64,000 nt of DNA. Origin: an uncultured archaeon. Lineage in GTDB: Archaea > Asgardarchaeota > Lokiarchaeia > Sigyniarchaeales > SOKP01. The stretch spans positions 50,087 to 114,086 of the forward strand of contig CAYLZE010000005.1 in NCBI GenBank assembly GCA_964388035.1. Direction: 5' to 3'. Within the stretch, counting starts at the first letter, position 1, and the number at the start of each line of letters is the position of its first letter. The notes below the pieces were generated by a model. It was not told the DNA's origin. It ran no database searches and was given only the letters and a program-made list of their open reading frames with translations. Position numbers and translations under genes: made by a program. This document shows positions 50,192-63,229 of the stretch, one piece after another.

Positions 50192-50454
50192 GGATATATT
50201 AAAAGATTGGCATTCGAAATATTTTATGTTGATTTAATTCATTTTAATTTTTGAATATATTTTTACTGCCTTATCAAAGGGCGTTTAATCAAACTTAATA
50301 AAAACGTTTAAAATTAAAATTTATAAAAATAAAATTTTTACGGCTTGAAATGGATTAGATCATTTAAAAATGATGATTGCTGATTTAGCAATTTCAATTT
50401 AAATAATTTGAGATAAAAGTATTTTTTTTTTCTTAAAATTTTAAAAAAGAGGAG

Positions 50455-50931
50455 TTAATCAGGAATGATCACAGAGGGATCTTCCTTAATTTTATCTAAT
50501 ACAATTTGTGTTTTAATTTCTTCGACCCCAGGTAAATTACGTAGGGTTTCAATAAGATTCATGGAGTCTTGGTGATCGAGACATTTTGCCATGATAAATA
50601 AGGGATATTCTCCCGTGATTACATATGCATATTTAACTTGAATCATTTCTAAAATCTTATTTTTAAGTGCATCTAAGGATTGCGAAGAATTTAGGCGAAG
50701 AGAAGCCATGACCATTTCCCTATACCCCAACTGGCGACAATCAATGAGCGTGACATATTGCTTGATGATATTCTGTTCTTTCATGCGATTTATACGCATT
50801 CGAATTGAAGTAGTACTTAAGCTGATCAATTTTTCAATATCACGCAAGGATGCTTTAGCATCATCTTGTAGGATTTTTAGTATTTCTTTATCGGTCTCAT
50901 CTAATTCTGCAATCTTTGGTATTCCTGCCAT
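50455..50931 (-). CDS. Lrp/AsnC-family transcriptional regulator
   Basis: LDETDKEILKILQDDAK...LSTTSIRMRINRM...ITGEYPL...IKTQIVL; divergent from tusA. Confidence 0.92.
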   Translation of the reverse strand: MAGIPKIAELDETDKEILKILQDDAKASLRDIEKLISLSTTSIRMRINRMKEQNIIKQYVTLIDCRQLGYREMVMASLRLNSSQSLDALKNKILEMIQVKYAYVITGEYPLFIMAKCLDHQDSMNLIETLRNLPGVEEIKTQIVLDKIKEDPSVIIPD

Positions 50932-51045
50932 TTTTTCCCATTCTCTTTAAAATAAGGTTAATCCTAACTTTTTATTAATTATAACTATATTTATCAAAAA
51001 TTAAAACTAATTTATGTTATGATGCTAACCATTTAAATTTTGCGT

Positions 51046-51116
51046 TTGTGATATTAGTTTAAAAAGGTTTATTCCAACTTGTGATAATCAAACACCGTAC
51101 TTTTATTATATGTGAT
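51046..51116 (+). promoter_or_regulatory. Triple-box operator/promoter upstream of tusA-dsrEFH
   Basis: TTGTGAT at 51046 and 51079, ATGTGAT at 51110; 18-mer ACTTTTATTATATGTGAT at 51099..51116. Confidence 0.8.
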
Positions 51117-51230
51117 GTATATTTAAATAGTAGATTACATTTGTACTAATTGAAAAAAAGATTATTATCACGTGTAATTAAAAAAAAACACAAAAGCAAT
51201 ACAAATTAAAAAAATTAAAGGGGTAATATA

Positions 51231-51455
51231 ATGTCAGAAGTTGTACTTGATTGTACAGGAATGAAGTGTCCGATGCCCGTGTTGAAAACTAAAAAAGAGT
51301 TGAGTAAATTAAGCACGGGACAGACTTTAAAGTTAATGGTTGACGATAAAGGCGCCTTAAAAGATATTCCGGCGTTATTACATAAAACTGGGGACGACTT
51401 GCTCGAAACTAAGGAAGAAGGAGAAAAAATTACGTTTACTATTAAAAAAGCGTAA
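51231..51455 (+). CDS. tusA: Sulfur carrier TusA/SirA
   Basis: LDCTGMKCPMPVLKTKK (CPxP), DD..A..DIP. Confidence 0.92.
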   Translation: MSEVVLDCTGMKCPMPVLKTKKELSKLSTGQTLKLMVDDKGALKDIPALLHKTGDDLLETKEEGEKITFTIKKA

Positions 51456-51473
51456 AGAACGGAGTTAGCGGTC

Positions 51474-51842
51474 ATGCATACATATACTATAGTGATAAGC
51501 ACGGAACCTTATAAATTTGAAGCAACGGATACATTGATAAATGTTGGAAATGCAATCATCAATCATGGAAATAAAATTCGGGGAATTTTTTTTTATGGGA
51601 GTGGCGTTTATAATATCAAGAAAGATATAGAAACAGGAATTAAGGTGCGTAATTTACCATCCAAATTAGAAGAATTCATTAAATTGAATAACATACAAGT
51701 AGCAGGATGCACGACATGGATCGGTCTCTGTGGTATAAAAGAAAATTGTTTTATCGATGGAGCAAAGGAAGAAGGATTAGGAGAATTAACTAACTGGACC
51801 TCAGAATCTGATAAATTAATTGTATTTGGTACCGGAGGATAG
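51474..51842 (+). CDS. dsrE: DsrE/TusD family sulfurtransferase
   Basis: TEPY, IFFYGSGVYN, conserved Cys in VAGCTTW, GLGEL...SDKLIVF. Confidence 0.85.
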   Translation: MHTYTIVISTEPYKFEATDTLINVGNAIINHGNKIRGIFFYGSGVYNIKKDIETGIKVRNLPSKLEEFIKLNNIQVAGCTTWIGLCGIKENCFIDGAKEEGLGELTNWTSESDKLIVFGTGG

Positions 51843-51847
51843 GAATC

Positions 51848-52216
51848 ATGATAAAATCTATTGTTATTATCTCAGATCATTCTCCTATCGGAAAAAATTC
51901 AGCTCGAGAAACTCTACGATTGGTTTCAGGTTTTGTAGGATTAGGGGTGGAATTAGATTGTAAGGTGATATTAACTGGAGATGCCGTTTTACTCATGAAT
52001 AAGCACTCCAATCCGAAAGCTATTGGAGCAGATTCATTTGATGAGGCTTTTGAAATGTTAGAACTCACGGATTCAGAAATATATTTACTGGATACCGCGT
52101 TAGAAGAGGTCGGATTAACTAAAGATGATCTTATCGATTATGAAAATCTCAAGGTGATATCGCTATCTCAAATGGTTAAGTTCATAGAACAAGCGGATAT
52201 GAGTTTTAGATTTTAA
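51848..52216 (+). CDS. dsrF: DsrF/TusC family protein
   Basis: HSPIGKNSARETLR, ILTGDAV, ends ADMSFRF. Confidence 0.8.
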   Translation: MIKSIVIISDHSPIGKNSARETLRLVSGFVGLGVELDCKVILTGDAVLLMNKHSNPKAIGADSFDEAFEMLELTDSEIYLLDTALEEVGLTKDDLIDYENLKVISLSQMVKFIEQADMSFRF

Positions 52217-52573
52217 ATGGGGTGGAAAAGAATGAAAGAAAATTATGATTTGCTGTACTTGTTTGGATACAGTCCAAGAACCGGAAAGGAATTAGAACGA
52301 TTACTCGCAATTGTTGAGCAACATCAAGAATCTGGGTTGCAGGTGGGGATGGTTTTGATTCATGATGGTGTCGTGGTAGCTTCCTCAATGGGTAAGCATC
52401 CTGAGGAAGTTAAGCGCCTGAGAGAACTCTCTATAGGATTACATGTAATGATACCTGATTTGCAAGCCCGAGGCCTTTCTTTAGATCACTTGGAGGAGAA
52501 CATCCAAGGTATTAATTACGAGGAATTAGTTGAGCTACTTGACAATGCGCAGAAAATCATATCGTGGATGTAA
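52217..52573 (+). CDS. dsrH: DsrH/TusB family protein
   Basis: LIHDGV, PDLQARG, INYEELVELL...ISW; start may be 52232. Confidence 0.82.
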   Translation: MGWKRMKENYDLLYLFGYSPRTGKELERLLAIVEQHQESGLQVGMVLIHDGVVVASSMGKHPEEVKRLRELSIGLHVMIPDLQARGLSLDHLEENIQGINYEELVELLDNAQKIISWM

Positions 52574-52871
52574 AGATTAAAGGCTTATAAAACAATAAAA
52601 AAGAAAAAAGATTTCCAAAATTCAAGAAAATTGAGTTAATTTGAGAGTAATACCAAGAAACTACATCTTTTTGTTCTTATTATTTATTTACTTCTTTAAA
52701 GCTATATTGTCAAATACAAGAGAAATTATAGGAATCTTTTTAAAAGTCTCATTATATGCCTTGAATTATAATTTAAAATTTTCCTTTTATTAATTTAAGC
52801 GGAAAACATGCACTTTAAGAAAGAAGAGTTCATAATTTTCTTTTTTTGATAAGGTTTGCATGAGTTTGCAC

Positions 52872-52941
52872 TTGTGATATTTTTATAAAGTTATCCTTAT
52901 GGTTTGTGATAATTAATGATAAAACTTTTATTATATGTGAT
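52872..52941 (+). promoter_or_regulatory. Triple-box operator/promoter upstream of the dsrE2-like gene
   Basis: TTGTGAT at 52872 and 52904, ATGTGAT at 52935; same 18-mer at 52924..52941. Confidence 0.8.
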
Positions 52942-53142
52942 TTAATTTTAAATAGTACCCTACATTTAATTTTAAGGAGTGATATCCTCCTTATCTTTAA
53001 AAAACATCAAAAAGTAAGTATTGGAGTAAAATGGTTTCCAAGCCAAATAAATACGGTCTTTTGATAAAATGGTTATCCAAAATACTCCAACTAATTGATT
53101 AAAATGCAGGGTCACTAAAAAATTAAAAGAAAGGTGGAAAAA

Positions 53143-53559
53143 ATGGTAGAAAAAATTAATTTTATTGTAAAGGACAAATCATTTGAGAAATTCATGATGA
53201 TGACGATCCTAGGAACCACAGGAGCCGCCATGGATACGGAAATGAACTTTTTCTTTACTTTTTGGGGGTTAAACCTCTTAAAAAAGTCATTTAAGCCAAA
53301 GGTTGCCGGAATGCCCTTTCCCATGAAAGGAATGGCGGCTAATATGTTTAGAAAAAGATTAAAGAAATTTGGAATGGAAAATCCTTGGGATCTGATCAAA
53401 GAAGCTGTGGAAGATGGGAAAATGAAATTATATCCTTGTCAAATGACGATGGACTTAATGGGAATTAAACGGGAAGAATTATGGGATTTCGTAGAAGATC
53501 CTATTGGTGCAGCTGGCTTCTTGGATATGGCAGAAGGGGCCAGAATTGTATCATTATAA
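53143..53559 (+). CDS. DsrE2/DsrE-like (YrkE-type) sulfur carrier
   Basis: FFFTFWGLNLLKK, LYPCQMTMDLMG, GAAGFL. Confidence 0.88.
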   Translation: MVEKINFIVKDKSFEKFMMMTILGTTGAAMDTEMNFFFTFWGLNLLKKSFKPKVAGMPFPMKGMAANMFRKRLKKFGMENPWDLIKEAVEDGKMKLYPCQMTMDLMGIKREELWDFVEDPIGAAGFLDMAEGARIVSL

Positions 53560-53900
53560 TTCTATGCAAATTTTTTGAAATTCTGTAATATCCGAAATTT
53601 TAAACAAGATTCTTCTACATGTTAGTATGGCATCAAAAGCTAAGTTAGCATAAGATTATAAATACAATTCTCGTAATAGAAAATTACATTGATAAAAAAT
53701 TGAAAAGTACAATGAGAAATAAAGAAGAAGGTTGTGATTACTTAATTCAGTAAATTAATAGGTTCTTTGTTTATATCTTTTTTTTAATTCTATTTTCTTA
53801 TCTTATTTTATTTTAGTCTTTTAAATGTGGTATTTTTAAATTTAAAATTGATCTTGTTTCTAATTTTGTTTGAAATTCAATGATAATTTGATTTTCGCGT

Positions 53901-53971
53901 TTGTGATATTACTTTTTAAATAGTAATTTCTTCTTGTGATAGTAAATGGAAAAACTTTTATTATATGTGAT
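53901..53971 (+). promoter_or_regulatory. Triple-box operator/promoter upstream of hdrC
   Basis: TTGTGAT at 53901 and 53934, ATGTGAT at 53965; same 18-mer at 53954..53971. Confidence 0.8.
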
Positions 53972-54029
53972 TCACTTTTAATTAAAAGTTTATATTTGTA
54001 ATATTATTAGCTAATATGGTGAAAAAAAA

Positions 54030-54578
54030 ATGTCAGATGTTAAAGAAGTACATCGTGAATTCAAGCTTGATGAAGAATTTGAGCCAGAATTCTTTAAAGA
54101 TATTGAACGACGGTCAAACATATTACAATGCATTCAATGCGGCACGTGCACTGCATCGTGCGAAAGTGGTCGATGGACTGCCTTAAAAACTCGATTAATC
54201 ATTAGAAAAGTCGTGTTAGGAGATTTATCGGTTCTAAAAGATCCTGACATTTGGCTCTGTACCACCTGTTATCAGTGTTATGAACGCTGTCCTCGTGATG
54301 TGCGTCCCACGGATGTAATCATGGAATTACGAAATATTGCCACTAAAATGGGGAACATATCTCCCAATCATAGAGCCGTGGTGGGCTATTTAAAAAACAC
54401 CGGACACGCAGTTCCTATTAACGACGCAGTAAGAAAACAACGCGTGGAACTGGGACTTGATGAACTTCCTCCGACCCTGTTCAAATATAAAGGAAAAAAA
54501 GGAGAAGAGGATCTCAAAAATATTCGAGAAAGATTGTTTCCCTTGCCTCTAGAGAAGGGAAAGGAGGGTAAGAATTAA
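54030..54578 (+). CDS. hdrC: Heterodisulfide reductase subunit C
   Basis: CIQCGTCTASC, WLCTTCYQCYERCPR, TGHAVP, LPPT. Confidence 0.93.
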   Translation: MSDVKEVHREFKLDEEFEPEFFKDIERRSNILQCIQCGTCTASCESGRWTALKTRLIIRKVVLGDLSVLKDPDIWLCTTCYQCYERCPRDVRPTDVIMELRNIATKMGNISPNHRAVVGYLKNTGHAVPINDAVRKQRVELGLDELPPTLFKYKGKKGEEDLKNIRERLFPLPLEKGKEGKN

Positions 54579-54579
54579 G

Positions 54580-55497
54580 ATGGTTAAGGAGAATACGTTT
54601 GCCTTCTTTTTGGGTTGCATAATGAATAATAGATACCCGCAGATTGAGAAGTCAACGAAGTACGTTATGGAAAGGTTGGGGTATACTCTATTGGATATGG
54701 AACGAGCCAGTTGCTGTCCGGCACCGGGCGTTCTCCGTTCATTTAATAAAATTGATTGGATGGTACTTGCCGCCCGGAACATTTGCATAGCGGAAAAGTT
54801 AGATGCGGATATTTTAACGGTTTGTAATGGTTGTTTTGGCACGCTTCAAGAGGTAAACAGGCATCTGAAGGAAAATGAAGCGCATCGGGAGTTAGTAAAC
54901 GAAAAATTAAAGCTCATTGGAGACTACCACTTTAACGGAACAATCGAAGTTAAGCACGTTGCTGAGGTATTGGGATATGAGATTGGTCCGTGGGGCATTG
55001 AGGATTTTATTACCAGGAAAGTACATGCCCGTGTAGCGGTTCATTATGGCTGTCATTTTTTAAAGCCCACGAAAATTAGGGAGATGGACAGTTCAGAAAA
55101 ACCAACAATCGTAGAGGACTTTATAAGTGCGTTGGGAGTTGAGGCCGTGCCATTTAAAGAGCAACTCACATGTTGTGGCGCGGGAGGTGGTCTGAAGGCC
55201 TTTGATGCTCCCTCCAGCATGAGCGTTTTTGCGGAGAAGATGAAGAACATTGATGAAGTGAAGCCAGATTTCATTTTAGATATATGTCCTTTCTGTCATT
55301 TACAATTTGAGACGGGGCAAGATTACTTGAACAAGAATAGGAACATGAATTATGATTATCCGGTAATTCATCTTTCCCAGCTCACGGCGTATTGCATGGG
55401 CATGGATCAAGAATTCGTCGGTTTACAATATCAGATGATGGGGAAAGACTACATTTTTGGAAAAGATACTAAAAAAGGAGAGGAGGAGATGGTTTAA
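54580..55497 (+). CDS. hdrB: Heterodisulfide reductase subunit B
   Basis: Two CCG domains: FLGCIMNNRYP, SCCPAPG, CNGC; HYGCH, CCGAGGG, CPFCHLQF. Confidence 0.94.
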   Translation: MVKENTFAFFLGCIMNNRYPQIEKSTKYVMERLGYTLLDMERASCCPAPGVLRSFNKIDWMVLAARNICIAEKLDADILTVCNGCFGTLQEVNRHLKENEAHRELVNEKLKLIGDYHFNGTIEVKHVAEVLGYEIGPWGIEDFITRKVHARVAVHYGCHFLKPTKIREMDSSEKPTIVEDFISALGVEAVPFKEQLTCCGAGGGLKAFDAPSSMSVFAEKMKNIDEVKPDFILDICPFCHLQFETGQDYLNKNRNMNYDYPVIHLSQLTAYCMGMDQEFVGLQYQMMGKDYIFGKDTKKGEEEMV

Positions 55498-55498
55498 G

Positions 55499-57535
55499 TT
55501 GACAATTAAAGAACACAAGTTGGAAAAGACGGCTTCTACAGAAGAACAGGACGAACCAAGTGAAGGGGAAGAGGAACCCCGCATAGGCGTTTTTGTATGT
55601 CATTGCGGGCATAATATTGCCGGTACGGTGGATGTAGAGAGGGTAGCAAAATATGCATCCACGCTTCCAGACGTGGTAAAAGCGGAACATTACATGTTCA
55701 TGTGTTCAAAACCAGGAGTGCAAATGGTAAAGGATTCCATCAAAGAATTGGGGGTGAATCGAACCGTGGTTGCCTCTTGTTCCAAAAATCAACACGGGAA
55801 GACCTTTGCGCACGCGATAGAAGAGATGGGAATCAACAAGCATCGACACCAGCAAGTAAACGTGAGGGAATATTGTAGTTGGGTGCATCAAAAAGATAAA
55901 GAGAAAGCTACTCAAAAAGCTCTCCGCTTGATTGAAGCGGGAGTGAATAGAGCTCGAAAATTAGAGGACGTAGAAACTCGAAAAATAAGCACTACCAAGG
56001 CCGCTTTAGTCATAGGAGGAGGTATTGCAGGACTTCGAGCTGCTAATGATATGGCAGAATTGGGCATCCCGGTCTACTTGGTGGAAAAAGAATCCACGAT
56101 AGGAGGACACATGACTAGATTAAATAAAACATTCCCGACTAATGAATGTCCTCAATGTAGCATATCACCTTTGACGAATGGAGTTGCGAATCATCCTTTA
56201 ATCGAATTATATACGAATGCTCAAGTTAAGGATGTTGAGGGTTCTCTTGGGAACTTTGAGATAGAAGTGGAAATCAAACCTCGATATGTCAATGACAACT
56301 GTACGAGCTGTGGAGAATGTGCCAAGAATTGTCCTGTAGAAGTACCAAGTGAGTGGGATATGGGAATGTCCATGCGTAATGCTATCTATAAGGCATATCC
56401 ACAAGCGATTCCCGCTACGTATGTTAGGGATAAAAAAACGTGTATTGAATGTAACACTTGTATAAATGTTTGCCCCGTAAATGCTATTGATTTTTCGATG
56501 GAAAAAGAAACGAAGAAATTCAAGGTGGGATCCATCGTGGTTGCTGCGGGTTATGATGAATATGATCCTACAGAAATAGAACCATACCATTATGGACAAG
56601 AAGGGTATGAGGATGTTATTACTCAATTAAAGTTAGAGAGAATGCTTTCTCCCACTTCAATGACCAATAGTGAGGTTCTTAGGCCATCAGATGGTAAGAT
56701 CCCGAAGAATATCGTAATGATTCAATGTGTTGGAAGCAGAAATGATCAAGTAGGAAATGCATATTGCACGGGAGTGTGCTGTAAAATCGCTGTTAAAAAT
56801 TCTGGGATTGTTAAAGAAATGTATCCTGATTCTAATGTTACTATTTGCTATATAGATATCAGAACCCCCGGGTTGAACTTTGAGGAATATTATAAATCTT
56901 CCCAAGAAAAAGGAGTGCGATTTATTCGGGGAAGACCCTCGGAAATAGTGAGAGATCCCAACACGGGAGAATTAAGAGTTATTGTTGAAGACACCCTTAG
57001 CCAAACACCCTTACAATTAAAAGCAGATTTAGTAATTCTTTCGGCGGCAATGGTTCCTCCTGAAGGAATCGGACCACTTGGATCAAAATTACATGTCTTG
57101 CGCTCAAAGGAGGGTTTTCTCAAGGAGTTCCATATCAAGATGAACCCTACTCTTAGCAGCAAGGGTGGAATCTTTTTGGCGGGAGCGATTCAAGGACCTA
57201 AAGATATATCGGAAACTGTCGCTCATGCAGGAAGTGCCGCGGCATTAGCAGCTGCACCCTTAGTTAAGGGATACATTGAAAAAGAAATGCTAGTACCCTC
57301 GGTTGCCAGAGATTTATGCACAAAGTGTGGGTTATGTGCAACCGTGTGCGCTCCCGCGGCAATTATTTTTAATGAAGAAGGTTATCCCGTTGTTAATGAG
57401 GTTGCTTGTAAATCTTGTGGAATGTGCATGCCCGCATGTCCTACAGCAGCGATTCAGCTCTTGAATTTTCGTGATGATCAACTATTAGATGAAATTAAAG
57501 CAGTATCTGGAGGAGGTGTGTGTGCCGATGACTGA
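55499..57535 (+). CDS. hdrA: Heterodisulfide reductase subunit A
   Basis: RIGVFVCHCGHNI, GGGIAG, KTFPTNECPQCS, inserted ferredoxin, QCVGSR...CTGVCC, C-terminal ferredoxin. TTG start at 55499 inferred. Confidence 0.94.
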   Translation: MTIKEHKLEKTASTEEQDEPSEGEEEPRIGVFVCHCGHNIAGTVDVERVAKYASTLPDVVKAEHYMFMCSKPGVQMVKDSIKELGVNRTVVASCSKNQHGKTFAHAIEEMGINKHRHQQVNVREYCSWVHQKDKEKATQKALRLIEAGVNRARKLEDVETRKISTTKAALVIGGGIAGLRAANDMAELGIPVYLVEKESTIGGHMTRLNKTFPTNECPQCSISPLTNGVANHPLIELYTNAQVKDVEGSLGNFEIEVEIKPRYVNDNCTSCGECAKNCPVEVPSEWDMGMSMRNAIYKAYPQAIPATYVRDKKTCIECNTCINVCPVNAIDFSMEKETKKFKVGSIVVAAGYDEYDPTEIEPYHYGQEGYEDVITQLKLERMLSPTSMTNSEVLRPSDGKIPKNIVMIQCVGSRNDQVGNAYCTGVCCKIAVKNSGIVKEMYPDSNVTICYIDIRTPGLNFEEYYKSSQEKGVRFIRGRPSEIVRDPNTGELRVIVEDTLSQTPLQLKADLVILSAAMVPPEGIGPLGSKLHVLRSKEGFLKEFHIKMNPTLSSKGGIFLAGAIQGPKDISETVAHAGSAAALAAAPLVKGYIEKEMLVPSVARDLCTKCGLCATVCAPAAIIFNEEGYPVVNEVACKSCGMCMPACPTAAIQLLNFRDDQLLDEIKAVSGGGVCADD

Positions 57536-57980
57536 ATGTGAAGTCGAAGAGCAAGAAATAAAAGATAAATATGAAAACATCGTGGTTTTCATGTGTAATG
57601 AATGTGGTCAAGGATCAGCAAACACGGCGGGTGTGGCCCGGATGGGATATGATCCAGCTATTCGAATCGTTCGCGTCCAATGCACCGGCCAAGTAGGACC
57701 CATTCAAATCATGGATGCAATCAACAACGGAGCAGATTCTGTGGCATGTATTGGTTGTTGTTTGGGGGCATGTCATTTCTTTAATGGAAATATCCTCTCA
57801 ATGCATCGAATAAAGTTATTAAAAAAGTTGTTTAAGGAGTTAGGGTATAGCGATCAATTTGTCAATCAGTATACTTCGCGTGCTGCAGAAGGTGAGACCG
57901 CAACTGGAGATTTTGAGGATATAGTGGAACGATTATCAAAAGCAATAAAAGAAGGAGGAGTCATAAAGAATGAATGTTAA
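57528..57980 (+). CDS. mvhD: MvhD [2Fe-2S] subunit
   Basis: FMCNEC...AG..RM.Y...IRIVRVQCTG, GC..GACHF..GN; SD GGAGGAGG. Confidence 0.88.
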   Translation: MTECEVEEQEIKDKYENIVVFMCNECGQGSANTAGVARMGYDPAIRIVRVQCTGQVGPIQIMDAINNGADSVACIGCCLGACHFFNGNILSMHRIKLLKKLFKELGYSDQFVNQYTSRAAEGETATGDFEDIVERLSKAIKEGGVIKNEC

Positions 57981-59211
57981 AGTTTTTCAGTTCGGTGGAT
58001 GTAATAAATGTTTTCATGAAGCCTTGTTATTGAAGGAAAATGATGCGCTAAACGTGGAATTTATTTCCGATCCAAAGTCTTGGAAAGAAGAAAAAGCAGA
58101 TGTATCCGTAATTGCAGGACATTTAATTCCAAAAGATAAAGAAATATTAGGAAGGATTAAAGCAAATTCCGGTAAAGTAATTGGATATGGAGATTGTACC
58201 ACAACAGGAGGAGTTTTTGCCTTAGCAAACCAAAGAGGCTTTGACATAACACCCTTAAAAGAATTCATCCCAAATGCCATGAACATTAATAGTTGTTTGG
58301 GTGAAATTGACGAATTAAGGACCGAAATTGAGGGAAAAGAGCAATCCAAGTTGGGAGTTTTATGCAATTCTTGTAAACGGAAAGCAACTTGTGAATATTT
58401 GGAAGAGGTACATCGTCAAATTGAATTTGAAGATGAAGAGACATGCTTTAATGACTTGGGATATCTTTGTAATGGATTCATCGCTAAAGAATGCAAGGAA
58501 CGCTGCGTGGACTTTAATGCGCCCTGTCGGGGATGCAAACCCATGGTAGAACGCTCGGGAATACGAATGTTAGGGATGTTTGGAACCTTGATGGGGAATA
58601 TTGATATGGCCACGGAACATTCCGAGAAAGGAGCTACGGACAAATTAGCCGATGCAGAGGACGATCTCACGCGAAGCTTGCCCGATGTAGTAGGGAATTT
58701 TTTTAGGTTTTCTCTCCGTACTTCAGGATTACCCAAAGGAAGGATTCCACCATCTGGTAGTCTATTGGAAAATGTGTTCACGGGTCGATTGATAGAAGAA
58801 TTACCTTTAATTGCCGGATTGCTTGGTGGAGATCGATGCATCTCTTTCATGTTAAAATTCATAGAACCATATGAAAAAGCTAACGGGATTGAAATTAGTC
58901 CTAAGACGCAAGAATATAGACAGCATTTATTAGAATTAGAACAAGATTTACAATCAGCGATAAAGGAAGAAGATCCTCAGAAATATAAGGAAATCACGAA
59001 AGAAATAAGAAAAATTGCTGGAAATATGAATTTATCTAACATGTTTTTTGGTGGATTTCGATCTCAAATTGATGGACAAGATAATTTTGAAGATTATAAA
59101 GTACATTTATTCGATATAATTGAGGGTACCTATAAAAATGGTACACTTGAATATGAAATCGATTCAAATGGAATAGTAAAACAAATAAAAATTAAGGAGG
59201 AAAAGAAATGA
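57970..59211 (+). CDS. Atypical MvhG-like Fe-S protein with C-terminal extension
   Basis: GCNKC, YGDCTTTGGV, CNSC, CFNDLGYLCNG, C...C....PCRGC, FFRFSL; about 150 extra C-terminal residues. Confidence 0.75.
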   Translation: MNVKVFQFGGCNKCFHEALLLKENDALNVEFISDPKSWKEEKADVSVIAGHLIPKDKEILGRIKANSGKVIGYGDCTTTGGVFALANQRGFDITPLKEFIPNAMNINSCLGEIDELRTEIEGKEQSKLGVLCNSCKRKATCEYLEEVHRQIEFEDEETCFNDLGYLCNGFIAKECKERCVDFNAPCRGCKPMVERSGIRMLGMFGTLMGNIDMATEHSEKGATDKLADAEDDLTRSLPDVVGNFFRFSLRTSGLPKGRIPPSGSLLENVFTGRLIEELPLIAGLLGGDRCISFMLKFIEPYEKANGIEISPKTQEYRQHLLELEQDLQSAIKEEDPQKYKEITKEIRKIAGNMNLSNMFFGGFRSQIDGQDNFEDYKVHLFDIIEGTYKNGTLEYEIDSNGIVKQIKIKEEKK

Positions 59212-61670
59212 GTTTTGCATTATTAAAAGAAGAAATAATTGACGCAGGCTTATGCCAAGGATGTGGACTTTGTGCGGGATCATGCAAGCATATTGAAATG
59301 GATGTTATGCGTCCTAATATCAAAGATTATTGCATTTTAGAAAGAGGTGCGGAAGATTGTGGAAAATGTTATCAAAATTGTCCTCAAGTAAAACAAAAAT
59401 CATTTAAAGAAAAACAACCCACGGCTATTTATTCTTTAAGAAGTACTAATCCCGAAATTTTAGAGAAAGCAACAAGTGGAGGATTTATTACAGCTCTTAC
59501 GAAACATCTGTTGGAAGAAGGGATTTTAAAAAATATCGTCATGGTCCAAAATGTAGATGATCGAGCAAAAGCTTCGATTGTTTCGGATCCCAAGGAGGTA
59601 ATTAAGAAAGCCGGAGTTGTATATGGTCGTTCGGGAGTGCTAGAAAAGTTAGTTACCCTTACTGGTGATCCCACGGAGCAAATTGGTATTGTAGGCGTTC
59701 CTTGCGAAATGCGTGGTGCAGCGGAATTAGAAACGGAAATGAATCGAGACATATTAAAAATGGGATTATTTTGCAATTCGAGCATACGAACAGTACAAAC
59801 GGATCATGGATTGGTTTGTTCACCTTGCTGTAATGGATGTCCCTCGGGTGTTAATGCTCAAGGATATATATCCTTGATTCGAGAAGGTAAATATCAAGAA
59901 GCCGTCGATTTAATTAGAGAAAACAATCCCCTACCCTCGATTTGTGGAAGGATTTGTACTCATGAATGCGAGCATGGCTGTACTTTGATCGGAGAAGACC
60001 ATCCTGTTGCTATACGGGAGCTTAAAAAGTTTATCACAGAATGGGAGATAACCAATTCCGATAAAAAGTTTTCTCGTTGGAGTAAAAATAAGAAAGATAA
60101 GATTGCTATCATTGGATCGGGGCCAGCAGGACTTACAGCAGGATACTATTTGGCGAAAATGGGATATCAACCAACCATATTTGAGAAGAGTGATCAAGTC
60201 GGAGGCATGTTAAGGTTCGGGGTACCGCAGTTCAGGCTACCCAATTATGTTTTAGATTATGATATTCAAATGATCAAACGAGTTGGCGTGAATATTCAAA
60301 CAAATAAACCTTTTGGTCCTGAGATGACCATCGAAAATTTAAAAGATGAGGGATTTAAAGCTATTTTCATAGCTATTGGGCAATATAAACCAAGAACTCT
60401 TCATCTTGAAGGAGAAGATTTACCAAATGTATATGTTGCAATCAATTTTCTGATTGATAGGAAATACCGATATTGGGAACAGAAGGAGGAGTTTGTAGGC
60501 AAAACAATCGGGATTATTGGAGGAGGCCCCGTAGCAGTAGATGTTGGTCAAACTGCCCTAAGATTAGGAGCTGAAGAGGTTCATCTGGTGGATATAATGA
60601 ACGAACAAGATTTAGAATTAGTACTCAGGGATATCCCCGAAAATGAGAAACCTTTGATGAAATATCATTACACCACTTCAACTTCCAAAATCACACAAAA
60701 TTCAGAAAAGAAATTGGTGTTGAATTGTTATAAAATCGAATGGGGAGAACCAAATGAAACTGGGAGAAAAGAGTTAAAAAAAGTGGAAAACTCAGATTAC
60801 ACCATACCTGTTGACGTGATTGTCATAGCTGTTGGTCAAGCCGTTGATTTTGAACTAATTGACGTGGCAACAAATAACGAAATAGAAAAGGATAGAAATA
60901 AAATTTCAATTAATCCCATAACCTTTGAAACTAACCTTCCAGGAGTCTTCGCAGGTGGGGATATTGTTGCGAATTCTAAGGCGGTTGCTATTGCGGCGAT
61001 TGCACATGGAAAGGAAGCTGCTATTTCCATTGATAGATATCTCAAGGGTGAAGATTTACTACAAGGCAGATATAAACAAGATAAAATGTTCTTTACGGGT
61101 CCACGCAAACCTCCAAAAGATTATTCCCAAAAACCTGAAAGTTTAGAAGAGGCGACAGAGGATGTAAAATGGGATTTTTCTGAAATTGATGCCATGTTTA
61201 ATGAAGATCTTGCATTAAAAGAGGCTCGACGCTGTCTCAGCTGCAATCATTTCTGTGCTCATTGTCAAGACTTTCCTGCTATATATTCCGATTTTTCAGC
61301 GGGAGAGGTAGGCTCTAAGGAAGGATTTACTACGGTGGTTGCGTGGTCAGCAAGAGGAAAAGAAATTATTGATAATGCCATATCCATAGGATTATTTGAA
61401 GTCGGAGAGGTAAATCAGGAAGAATTAAGAAAGGCCATTCATCTTAAATCCAAGCGCGATTTACTAACTTTCGAAAAAACATCTCGTCAACAAGTTCTTG
61501 AATACATTACCAAGCAAGGACCCAGCACCATAAGCAACATGGCAGAAAATTTATCTTTGGAACCCAAAAAAGTGAGATATGAAGCCTTAAGATTAGTCCA
61601 ACTCAATAAAGTTGAAATGAAAATTCAAACGGGTACAAATGATCCATTATTTACCCTAACTTGCGATTAA
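59208..61670 (+). CDS. FrhB/FdhB-like protein with inserted GltD/NfnB-like FAD/NAD(P) oxidoreductase and C-terminal wHTH
   Basis: FrhB N-part (GLCQGCGLC, SGGFITAL, VGVPC, GLFC); GltD block (PCCNGCP...CGRICTHECEHGC, GSGPAG, FAGGD, EARRCLSC); FrhB C-part (CAHCQDF...SDFSAG.VGS..GFTTVV); HTH tail. Confidence 0.8.
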   Translation: MSFALLKEEIIDAGLCQGCGLCAGSCKHIEMDVMRPNIKDYCILERGAEDCGKCYQNCPQVKQKSFKEKQPTAIYSLRSTNPEILEKATSGGFITALTKHLLEEGILKNIVMVQNVDDRAKASIVSDPKEVIKKAGVVYGRSGVLEKLVTLTGDPTEQIGIVGVPCEMRGAAELETEMNRDILKMGLFCNSSIRTVQTDHGLVCSPCCNGCPSGVNAQGYISLIREGKYQEAVDLIRENNPLPSICGRICTHECEHGCTLIGEDHPVAIRELKKFITEWEITNSDKKFSRWSKNKKDKIAIIGSGPAGLTAGYYLAKMGYQPTIFEKSDQVGGMLRFGVPQFRLPNYVLDYDIQMIKRVGVNIQTNKPFGPEMTIENLKDEGFKAIFIAIGQYKPRTLHLEGEDLPNVYVAINFLIDRKYRYWEQKEEFVGKTIGIIGGGPVAVDVGQTALRLGAEEVHLVDIMNEQDLELVLRDIPENEKPLMKYHYTTSTSKITQNSEKKLVLNCYKIEWGEPNETGRKELKKVENSDYTIPVDVIVIAVGQAVDFELIDVATNNEIEKDRNKISINPITFETNLPGVFAGGDIVANSKAVAIAAIAHGKEAAISIDRYLKGEDLLQGRYKQDKMFFTGPRKPPKDYSQKPESLEEATEDVKWDFSEIDAMFNEDLALKEARRCLSCNHFCAHCQDFPAIYSDFSAGEVGSKEGFTTVVAWSARGKEIIDNAISIGLFEVGEVNQEELRKAIHLKSKRDLLTFEKTSRQQVLEYITKQGPSTISNMAENLSLEPKKVRYEALRLVQLNKVEMKIQTGTNDPLFTLTCD

Positions 61671-61699
61671 ATTAAAAAATAATTAAGGAGGAATTATAC

Positions 61700-61936
61700 A
61701 TGAAATGTGATAGTGAATTAAACGTTTGCGGATTGGTTTGTCCGGTTCCAGCTCTAAAGACTAAGCAAGAATTGCGAAAGATGCGTCCTGGAACGGTGCT
61801 TAAAGTAATTACCGATTACAAGCCAGCCAGCGAATCTGTTCCCAGAGACTTAGCTAAAACCAAGCACAAACATTTAGGAACGGAATTTAATGATGATGAC
61901 GAGCAATGGTACATGTATTTTGAAGTTGTAAAATAA
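61700..61936 (+). CDS. tusA: Second TusA/SirA sulfur carrier
   Basis: LNVCGLVCPVPALKTK (CPxP), LKVITD; SD AAGGAGG. Confidence 0.9.
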   Translation: MKCDSELNVCGLVCPVPALKTKQELRKMRPGTVLKVITDYKPASESVPRDLAKTKHKHLGTEFNDDDEQWYMYFEVVK

Positions 61937-62006: not shown

Positions 62007-62360
62007 TTACATCCAAGAGACTATTTTAGGATGATCTACTAAAAGATCCACTAAAGCGTTATAATCAATGAGTTTGATTTTTTCTTGTATCTCATTCAAA
62101 TCCATACCTCGTGCTTTCATATCAGGGACTAATGCGAAAAGATTAGCAGCTAACCCCATTAACTTTTCTAAATTAGGATTTATTTCTGACTTTTTTGAAA
62201 GACCAATAACCCCATCATGAAGGAACACTAAACTTACCTCAGCACTCAATACTTGAACTTGGTCCTCAATTATCTTAACTAATTCTTTAAAAGCTTTGTA
62301 TATATTAATACTATAACCAAACAAGTAAATAATTCTTTTGGATTCCATAACTTTTCCCAT
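62007..62360 (-). CDS. dsrH: DsrH/TusB family protein (copy 2)
   Basis: FLHDGV, PDMKARG, IDYNALVDLL...VSWM. Confidence 0.82.
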   Translation of the reverse strand: MGKVMESKRIIYLFGYSINIYKAFKELVKIIEDQVQVLSAEVSLVFLHDGVIGLSKKSEINPNLEKLMGLAANLFALVPDMKARGMDLNEIQEKIKLIDYNALVDLLVDHPKIVSWM

Positions 62361-62365
62361 CCTAT

Positions 62366-62743
62366 TTAATATTTAAACGTAAAATCTGCCTCTAATATTA
62401 ATTTTGAGATGAGATCATGACTAATTAGTTGAATACTATCACTTGTCATCAGGTCCCCCTCAGTTAAACCCAAAATTGTAAGATCTTCCTCACATATGTA
62501 AATTTCTAGATTCGAAAGGTCCATCAATTTTTTTAGATCATTCAAGGAATCCAAATTAAGTGCAAGAGGATCAATTTGGCGGTTTAAAAAATAAATAGCG
62601 TCCTTGAGTAATACCACCTTACAATCCTCAATATCTCCAACTGCTAATATGCCCGAGGCCAATCGAATTGATTCAATTACAGAATTCTTTCCAAACGGTG
62701 AATCTTCGCATATTATTAAAATTGAATTCATGTTGGTTTTCAT
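62366..62743 (-). CDS. dsrF: DsrF/TusC family protein (copy 2)
   Basis: DSPFGKNSVIESIR, LLKDAIY, ADFTFKY; start 62743 or 62731. Confidence 0.8.
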   Translation of the reverse strand: MKTNMNSILIICEDSPFGKNSVIESIRLASGILAVGDIEDCKVVLLKDAIYFLNRQIDPLALNLDSLNDLKKLMDLSNLEIYICEEDLTILGLTEGDLMTSDSIQLISHDLISKLILEADFTFKY

Positions 62744-63108
62744 CTCCCCGGTCCAAAAAAAATGACCCGATCTGAATTTGCTATTAATTCCGAAAGTCCT
62801 CCTAATCCCTCTATACATGCACTTTCTATGAATTCGGAAGACTTAATTCCCGTGATGCTTATCCACGTACTACAGGCCGCCACCTTGGCTTGATATTTAT
62901 TACTGAATTCAAGCAATCGTTTTGGTAAATTTCTAAATGAATTCCCGACTTCTCTATCACCTTTAATGCTATAGACGCCACTCCCATAGAAAAAGATTCC
63001 CAAAATCCGATGTCCTTTGCTGATAATTGCTTCTCCTAAATTAATTAAGGTATCCAATGCTTCATATTTATATGGTTCCGCTGAAACGATGAATGAAAAT
63101 GTTACCAT
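62740..63108 (-). CDS. dsrE: DsrE/TusD family protein (copy 2)
   Basis: AEPY, IFFYGSGVY, VAACSTW, SDRVIFF. Confidence 0.85.
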   Translation of the reverse strand: MVTFSFIVSAEPYKYEALDTLINLGEAIISKGHRILGIFFYGSGVYSIKGDREVGNSFRNLPKRLLEFSNKYQAKVAACSTWISITGIKSSEFIESACIEGLGGLSELIANSDRVIFFGPGR

Positions 63109-63229
63109 GTAATATTTTATTGAACTATACTATATTTTCTTAATGGTTATAATAGTTCAGCCATATTGAAAATTAAATAAAAATAAAAATAAAGAAGATA
63201 TATAAAAATAAAAAAAACAATTTGGTTAA

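Follow-up and report, generated by a model that had tools for sequence, protein, structure and literature searches.

A probable phased operator/promoter cassette in three copies at the sulfur carrier and Hdr gene cluster of a Loki-lineage archaeon, with the neighbouring Lrp as its predicted binder

The 64,000-nucleotide stretch of DNA analysed here, called the window in the following, is C5:50087-114086 of a 5.47-Mb Loki-lineage assembly (33% GC, 211 contigs). It carries sulfur carrier genes (tusA, dsrEFH, dsrE2) beside hdr genes, and an Lrp/AsnC regulator gene is divergent from them. Short repeats with a TGTGAT core stand upstream of tusA, dsrE2 and hdrC. The question raised by this locus is what the repeats are, and which protein would bind them. 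The initial annotation had proposed that they are one operator layout shared by three promoters, and that they define an Lrp regulon coupling the carriers to Hdr. Our reading, to which we assign a probability of roughly 0.6, is that the repeats form a cis-regulatory operator/promoter cassette with a length of about 105-118 bp and with the cluster Lrp as predicted binder.

Positions 50300-54300 were read directly for boxes, TATA elements and leaders. Three boxes of the same orientation stand upstream of each unit, with spacings of 33/31, 32/31 and 33/31 bp in copies 1, 2 and 3, respectively (Table 1). The first two boxes of each copy read TTGTGATA, a sequence which the 64-kb window holds in these six copies only, all on the plus strand. 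The third box, ATGTGAT, starts at 51110, 52935 and 53965 and is contained within an 18-mer, ACTTTTATTATATGTGAT, which is exact in all three arrays. A TATA element follows, TTTAAATA in copies 1 and 2 and TTTAATTA in copy 3, and its start lies 12 bp from the start of ATGTGAT in three of three copies. When all boxes are aligned, the only sequence they have in common is TTGTGATA(W)T. The initial annotation was exact in the coordinates and spacings of the boxes as well as in the shared 18-mer followed by a TATA-like element, and its view that the three units have one operator/promoter layout is supported. The copies align over approximately 105-118 bp with 73-75% identity (blastn E 1e-11 to 1e-12). 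The boxes are 100% identical between the copies, and the two spacings are kept along with the 18-mer and the TATA, while the spacers between the boxes have mostly drifted. Judged by their sequences, the three arrays derive from one module as paralogous copies and do not represent three independent occurrences. Copies 2 and 3 have retained the TTTGCR/TTTCGCG part to the left of box 1 and lack the left TATA, which fits with no leftward gene being present there. The spacing of 31-33 bp, kept in orthologs over four to five periods, is that of a phased array with sites two or three helical turns apart.

The module is unique to this locus. TGTGAT occurs 1859 times on both strands of the whole genome and the 18-mer three times. 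Phased triples number exactly three, all at the cluster, while arithmetic from the genome counts gives a chance expectation of about 5e-4 triples at 31-33 bp spacing. The motif scan of the genome, a check set beforehand, thus gave no sign of random genome-wide occurrence. Blastn of the three intergenic regions found the module nowhere else in the genome, and a mobile or dispersed repeat was rejected, as blastn places the module at three sites only. Upstream of the second dsrEFH set (63109-63229) no box was found by blastn or by the position weight matrix (PWM) scan, which bears out the earlier remark that the motif is missing there. The term regulon was overstated, as the genome has no other array, and the control system appears from its sequence to be confined to one locus, with no genome-wide regulon. 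Outside the locus there are six two-box TGTGAT pairs versus about three expected; two intergenic pairs adjoin a TrmB-like regulator with a methyltransferase, and a Roadblock-domain gene. Such pairs were rejected as regulon members, their number being near chance. A metagenome scan for the phased triple-box pattern was uninformative: it gave at least 80 matches, mostly in tandem-repeat DNA, and no homologs of Lrp, TusA, DsrE2 or HdrC were found at the 80 matches listed. A scan for sigma-70 promoters and intrinsic terminators, a bacterial model which does not apply to an archaeon, stayed at chance level.

For comparison we used Promethearchaeota metagenome-assembled genomes (Asgard, Loki-lineage) with 12 same-family orthologous loci, whose intergenic regions were aligned with box 1 as anchor. 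Ten relatives' loci span the genes and have Lrp divergent from tusA-dsrEFH-dsrE2-hdrCBA-mvhD-...-tusA2, or from a form of this cluster that is truncated or reduced. The regulator is divergent from the cluster in 11 of the 11 sufficiently long related loci, from tusA in ten and directly from hdrC in L031, and the gene order of unit 3 is the same in L022, L023, L025, L027 and L028. The scan of orthologous upstream regions, likewise decided beforehand, had a positive outcome: phased YGTGAT boxes (31-33 bp) are kept in L021, L022, L024, L025 and L031, as in copy 1 of the window. Four perfect boxes with a spacing of 32/31/31 are present in L024. In L022 and L025 boxes 4 and 5 follow past the TATA at +31 and +31, with CGTGAT at the box-5 phase; in L024 an in-phase TGTGAT stands one period closer than box 5, since box 2 is missing. 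All orthologous arrays, and copy 1, are situated in the intergenic region just upstream of lrp (Lrp-tusA, or Lrp-hdrC in L031), with a distance of 81-129 bp from array to lrp start, that is, in the regulator's own control region. Approximately 15 bp to the left of box 1, TTTAAA or TATAAA together with YTTTGYG is found in six of six array-bearing regions, a putative core promoter of the divergent lrp. Distant relatives have AAAAAC, resembling a transcription factor B recognition element (BRE), at the position of box 3, and TATA regions AAAAAACTAnnATTTAAATA.

The internal spacers set this genome apart. The gap between dsrH and dsrE2 is 52-173 bp in the ten relatives measured versus 560 bp here, and that between dsrE2 and hdrC is 42-71 bp in the nine relatives keeping hdrC there versus 470 bp here; none of the relatives' gaps contains a module. 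On the basis of these short gaps without modules, the ancestral state is read as a single array in the Lrp-tusA intergenic region, and by the same comparison the cassette was copied twice, in this genome alone, into the enlarged spacers. Like the architecture, the uniqueness in the genome and the conservation, the duplication is shown. That boxes, spacing, 18-mer and TATA are intact in copies otherwise so diverged indicates that selection retained the boxes after duplication. The idea that carriers and Hdr form one system holds mainly by conserved synteny, as the relatives have a compact single-array cluster; the triple-promoter layout, which the initial annotation had offered as evidence for it, is specific to this genome. 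That carriers and Hdr are coupled was earlier put forward as a hypothesis for a different Asgard archaeon in a 2025 preprint (bioRxiv 10.1101/2025.07.22.663070).

Several relatives' loci have peculiarities of their own. In L021:1771-3205 (G001, same genus) the cluster is degraded: about 31 codons of dsrE are fused near a partial dsrH, and about 25 N-terminal codons of hdrC (EFHREFKLDEEF...) run straight into the C-terminal third of tusA2. The fusion resembles a deletion spanning hdrC through tusA2, and Lrp, a CGTGAT-variant array, tusA and dsrE2 are still present. In two relatives (L038 and L039/L031) hdrC is itself the neighbour from which Lrp diverges, and tusA-dsrEFH-dsrE2 do not stand between the two, which suggests that the regulator travels with hdr even where the carriers are missing from that place. 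At order level, in G044, G048, G050 and G055 (L015-L019), a 39-42% identical Lrp is encoded on the same strand as dsrE2, approximately 150-230 bp off, and no TGTGAT array was seen at these four Lrp-dsrE2 loci.

The divergent gene does encode a bona fide Lrp/AsnC regulator, as had been claimed. It has an AsnC-type helix-turn-helix (HTH) domain (PF13404, E 2.4e-10, residues 10-51) and an AsnC_trans_reg/RAM domain (PF01037, E 6e-11, residues 79-146), and its closest solved relative is FL11/PH1519 (E 5e-22, full length). The AlphaFold2 (AF2) model (pLDDT 74.7) consists of an HTH and a beta-alpha-beta-beta-alpha-beta domain with strands and helices at E72-80, H86-94, E99-104, E111-115, H120-131 and E136-144. 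No regulator gene other than Lrp is consistently linked to the array, and the expected presence of Lrp along with the carrier/hdr cluster across relatives is supported: in family f1 Lrp and DsrE2 occur together in 11 genomes and neither occurs in 23, with two mismatches (G012, G035) at contig ends, a co-occurrence which is descriptive, with no formal test, as related genomes are not independent samples. In array-bearing orthologs helix 3 reads L(S/T)TT(S/A)IR. The other Lrp clade has (K/M)S(A/Q/P)T with a one-residue deletion, and an inverted TCACTA...TAGTGA pair instead of the array. A GTGA core is present in all operators, including the TTGTGAAAAG/CTTTTTCACAA palindrome in L023. There is thus a weak indication that operator type and recognition helix change together between two Lrp subclades, with essentially one switch in the tree (clade support 92/98). 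The bracketing of the array by two divergent predicted core promoters was also counted toward Lrp. From synteny, co-occurrence, three-turn phasing and the helix-operator co-change we infer that the neighbouring Lrp is the best candidate binder of the arrays.

Several points weigh against this reading. The boxes are asymmetric direct repeats, unlike the characterised 13-15-bp semi-palindromic Lrp sites with their A+T-rich centre, and a dyad search in the flanks of the nine window boxes and of the orthologous boxes found no consistent dyad partner. Natural Lrp sites are often degenerate, so the lacking palindromy lowers, and does not exclude, membership among Lrp arrays. The correlation between helix and operator amounts to only one or two evolutionary events. 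TATA and BRE were assigned by consensus match only. The PWM scan of the genome for three-box arrays reached 40-41 bits at the three copies and 20.7 at the next, unrelated locus, and as the matrix was built from the same window sites which ranked best, the gap to the next locus is informative and the absolute score is not. In copies 2 and 3 the boxes are upstream only, which also fits a model of a Ptr2-like activator at an upstream activating sequence.

In the mechanism which we propose, Lrp/AsnC dimers would bind the three same-strand TTGTGATA-type boxes, which at 31-33 bp are three helical turns apart and would lie on one face of the DNA. Binding would be cooperative, as a higher-order assembly wrapping approximately 100 bp between and across two divergent core promoters. 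The third box would abut the BRE/TATA of a rightward archaeal promoter, and in several relatives the ancestral array would extend with in-phase boxes across start site and leader. The result would be repression and negative autoregulation, lifted by a sulfur-related signal; which protein binds, in which direction it regulates and what its ligand is are all predictions from sequence. Repression is slightly favoured over activation, since box 3 lies on the BRE position, orthologs have boxes 4 and 5 over the start site, and box 1 directly adjoins the promoter of lrp. Oligo-T runs serve as terminators in archaea, and such runs are found in the enlarged spacers right after dsrE2 and after dsrH, where they probably terminate transcription. 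The two cassette copyings would have provided tusA-dsrEFH, dsrE2 and hdrCBA-mvhD-...-tusA2 each with its own regulated promoter, and the copied cassettes would restore co-regulated initiation for dsrE2 and hdr after termination.

Leaders and spacers hold some further elements. In the dsrE2-hdrC gaps of four relatives (L022:3781-3841, L023:3615-3657, L028:3689-3738, L030:3793-3836, oriented copies) dsrE2 gives way at once to a run of T10-T15, after which a TTTATATTT-like element stands some 25 bp ahead of hdrC. The two may be an internal terminator or attenuator and a weak promoter setting the carrier:Hdr ratio. The 5' leaders of tusA (L022, L024, L025, L027, L028, L040-L047, and the window at 51162-51180) have an inverted repeat 40-70 nt past the TATA, whose arms vary yet stay complementary (ATCAC..GTGAT, GATATCA..TGATATC, ATACCA..TGGTAT). 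The repeat may form a hairpin in the leader or serve as a palindromic operator. The predicted leader of approximately 170 nt that separates module copy 2 from dsrE2 contains a 23-codon open reading frame (MVSKPNKYGLLIKWLSKILQLID, 53031-53102) preceded by GGAG. It has no known homolog and may be due to chance.

The operator/promoter could be real and its boxes be bound by another transcription factor encoded elsewhere, for example the TrmB-family regulator on contig C11. We consider this doubtful. The asymmetry of the TTGTGATA boxes, so unlike known Lrp semi-palindromes, speaks for such a factor, and upstream of the C11 TrmB-like gene there are two TTGTGAT boxes flanking a TATA, along with a TTGTG-N6-CACAA palindrome. 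However, the TrmB-like query gave no match (E <= 1e-15) in the box-bearing G001 and G011, was 27-31% identical in G015 and G018, and had its best match (40%) in G006, a genome without Lrp and without the cluster. Neither the near-chance number of two-box pairs outside the locus nor the exclusive linkage of Lrp, among regulator genes, to the array is what a factor encoded elsewhere would lead one to expect, and on the phyletic pattern the TrmB-like protein was rejected as binder. In the C11 region itself (L033:3330-3400; G000 C11:68830-68900) the two TTGTGAT boxes of the TrmB-family gene are 34 bp apart and the palindrome is perfect; the site is probably that gene's own autoregulatory operator, unrelated to the Lrp array.

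It is also conceivable, and in our view improbable, that copies 2 and 3 are inert relics of a segmental duplication or insertion, with only the Lrp-tusA copy working and the cluster read as one transcript. Relatives do get by with a single array and short gaps, and the left TATA is missing from copies 2 and 3 and box 4 from copy 2. Inert relics, however, would hardly have kept the nine boxes, the two spacings, the 18-mer and the distance from box to TATA all intact through a drift to 73-75% identity, and with oligo-T runs past dsrE2 and dsrH the downstream units would need promoters of their own. Highly improbable is a structured RNA (leader, riboswitch or small RNA) instead of a protein-binding DNA array. 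Although read-through from upstream units could transcribe copies 2 and 3, Rfam gave no match at E <= 1, the folding energies are no better than those of shuffles (z = -0.10, -0.03, -1.62), and the three folds differ. The RNA element was rejected on the Rfam result and the shuffle-level folding. What is conserved are discrete boxes at helical phase and no paired stems, and copy 1 has its boxes upstream of the TATA.

What signal such an Lrp could respond to is a further question. The protein has exactly two cysteines, C65 and C117, the number given in the initial annotation. Both are invariant in 23 of 23 orthologs, down to 39% identity, and the pair is absent from all six paralogous Lrp proteins that the genome encodes; in FL11 the corresponding residues are Pro and Thr. 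In the AF2 model C65 is located just before beta1 and C117 just after beta3, strands expected to be adjacent in the canonical beta-alpha-beta-beta-alpha-beta topology. One speculative and rather unlikely possibility is that the cluster Lrp is a thiol-based sensor of sulfane sulfur or redox state. Located along an edge of the RAM sheet, Cys65 and Cys117 would become bridged or persulfidated through the cargo which TusA, DsrE2 and DsrEFH pass to Hdr, and would so switch the wrapped operator complex. If true, this would be the first Lrp/AsnC protein that replaces amino-acid binding by a cysteine switch, and archaea would have a counterpart to the bacterial SqrR/SoxR/sHdrR logic, reached in a different fold. 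As those proteins have an ArsR-SmtB fold and this one the Lrp/AsnC fold, it would be a functional analogue at most. Order-level homologs have extra cysteines beside both positions (DCC, FC...KC).

The features of the locus are collected in Table 1. The start of the dsrE2-like gene is likely the ATG at 53143, with GGTGG just before it.

Table 1. Coordinates of genes and regulatory features in the window.
Feature	Position	Strand	Details
Lrp/AsnC regulator gene, 158 aa, divergent from tusA	50455..50931	-	Pfam
Putative divergent lrp core promoter	51032..51045	-	TTTAAA then TTTTGCGT, BRE-like read on the minus strand; abuts box 1
Module copy 1, Lrp-tusA intergenic, presumed ancestral position	51031..51148	+	Box 1 51046-51053; box 2 51079-51086
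Module copy 1, right part		+	18-mer with box 3 51099-51116; TATA 51122-51129; degenerate box 4 (TGTACT) 51142-51147
Degenerate in-phase box 5 (TGTAAT), tusA leader	51173..51178	+	31 bp past box 4; inside ATTATCACGTGTAAT inverted repeat
Unit 1: tusA, dsrE, dsrF, dsrH	51231-51455, 51474-51842, 51848-52216, 52217-52573	+	Pfam TusA, DsrE, DsrE, DsrH
Module copy 2, 560-bp dsrH-dsrE2 spacer	52865..52967	+	Boxes 52872-52879, 52904-52911; 18-mer 52924-52941; TATA 52947-52954; box 4 lost
Unit 2: dsrE2-like gene	53134..53559	+	PF13686 DrsE_2, E 8e-26
Module copy 3, 470-bp dsrE2-hdrC spacer	53886..54003	+	Boxes 53901-53908, 53934-53941; 18-mer 53954-53971
Module copy 3, right part		+	TATA-like TTTAATTA 53977-53984; degenerate box 4 (TGTAAT) 53997-54002
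Unit 3: hdrC, hdrB, hdrA, mvhD, MvhG-like (Oxidored_q6), FrhB/GltD fusion, tusA2	54030..61936	+	Pfam
Second dsrHFE set	62007-63108	-	Pfam

In its architecture the locus appears to follow a known pattern, that of an Lrp-type phased array placed in the control region of the regulator itself. Archaeal Lrp sites are two or three helical turns apart (PMC2995911), and Ss-LrpB of Sulfolobus solfataricus binds its own control region at three sites of regular spacing, with approximately 100 bp wrapped (PMC2995911, PMC1802622), so that the precedent invoked by the initial annotation, about three sites at three-turn phasing, is documented. The likeness to Ss-LrpB extends to three whole-turn-phased sites at the regulator's own control region, with wrapping and autoregulation predicted here, and it ends at the boxes, which in Ss-LrpB are 15-bp palindromes (TTGCAAAATTTGCAA consensus) and here asymmetric 8-10-bp direct repeats (TTGTGATA) rather than 13-15-bp semi-palindromes. 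In addition, the array here has been copied to two more promoters in one cluster. FL11 (PH1519, Pyrococcus), the closest solved homolog, has the same HTH and RAM architecture and is a lysine-sensing Lrp octamer covering long DNA stretches (PMC2995911); apart from the residues at the two cysteine positions it differs in its targets, which are genes of amino-acid metabolism and not sulfur carriers or Hdr. Ptr2 of Methanocaldococcus jannaschii is an Lrp-type activator with regularly spaced sites upstream of the target TATA (PMC2995911). It has in common with the present case that the regulator's own control region is beside a target, but it has two sites per target, whereas three to five sites are found here, where they overlap the position of the BRE and, in the orthologs, also that of the start site, a contrast which points more to repression. 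SoxR, sHdrR and SqrR are sulfane-sulfur-responsive repressors of bacterial sHdr/TusA/DsrE genes with two conserved sensor cysteines (PMC10451225, PMC12423496). As dedicated local regulators of clusters of Hdr-like and TusA/DsrE genes, with two conserved cysteines, they are alike, sensing in our case being proposed by analogy only; they differ in being bacterial ArsR-SmtB family proteins with another operator type. In the searchable literature we found no description of such an Lrp-type array for Asgard archaea. What is new, as judged from the sequence comparison, is that the operator is defined, that it is conserved, and that its triplication is lineage-specific.

To our knowledge, hardly any experimental knowledge exists of how Asgard archaea regulate their genes, and few of them can be grown. 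A small soluble regulator and a sharply defined operator (approximately 105 bp; nine perfect boxes across its three copies) allow in vitro tests that use recombinant protein and need no culture, and three cassette copies in one genome versus one in its relatives constitute a natural experiment. The cassette would give a regulatory handle on the TusA/DsrE/Hdr module, recently proposed as part of Asgard hydrogen-sulfur metabolism. Its triplication, as we read it, illustrates how an operon, by copying its own operator, may break up into units that have separate promoters and are regulated together.

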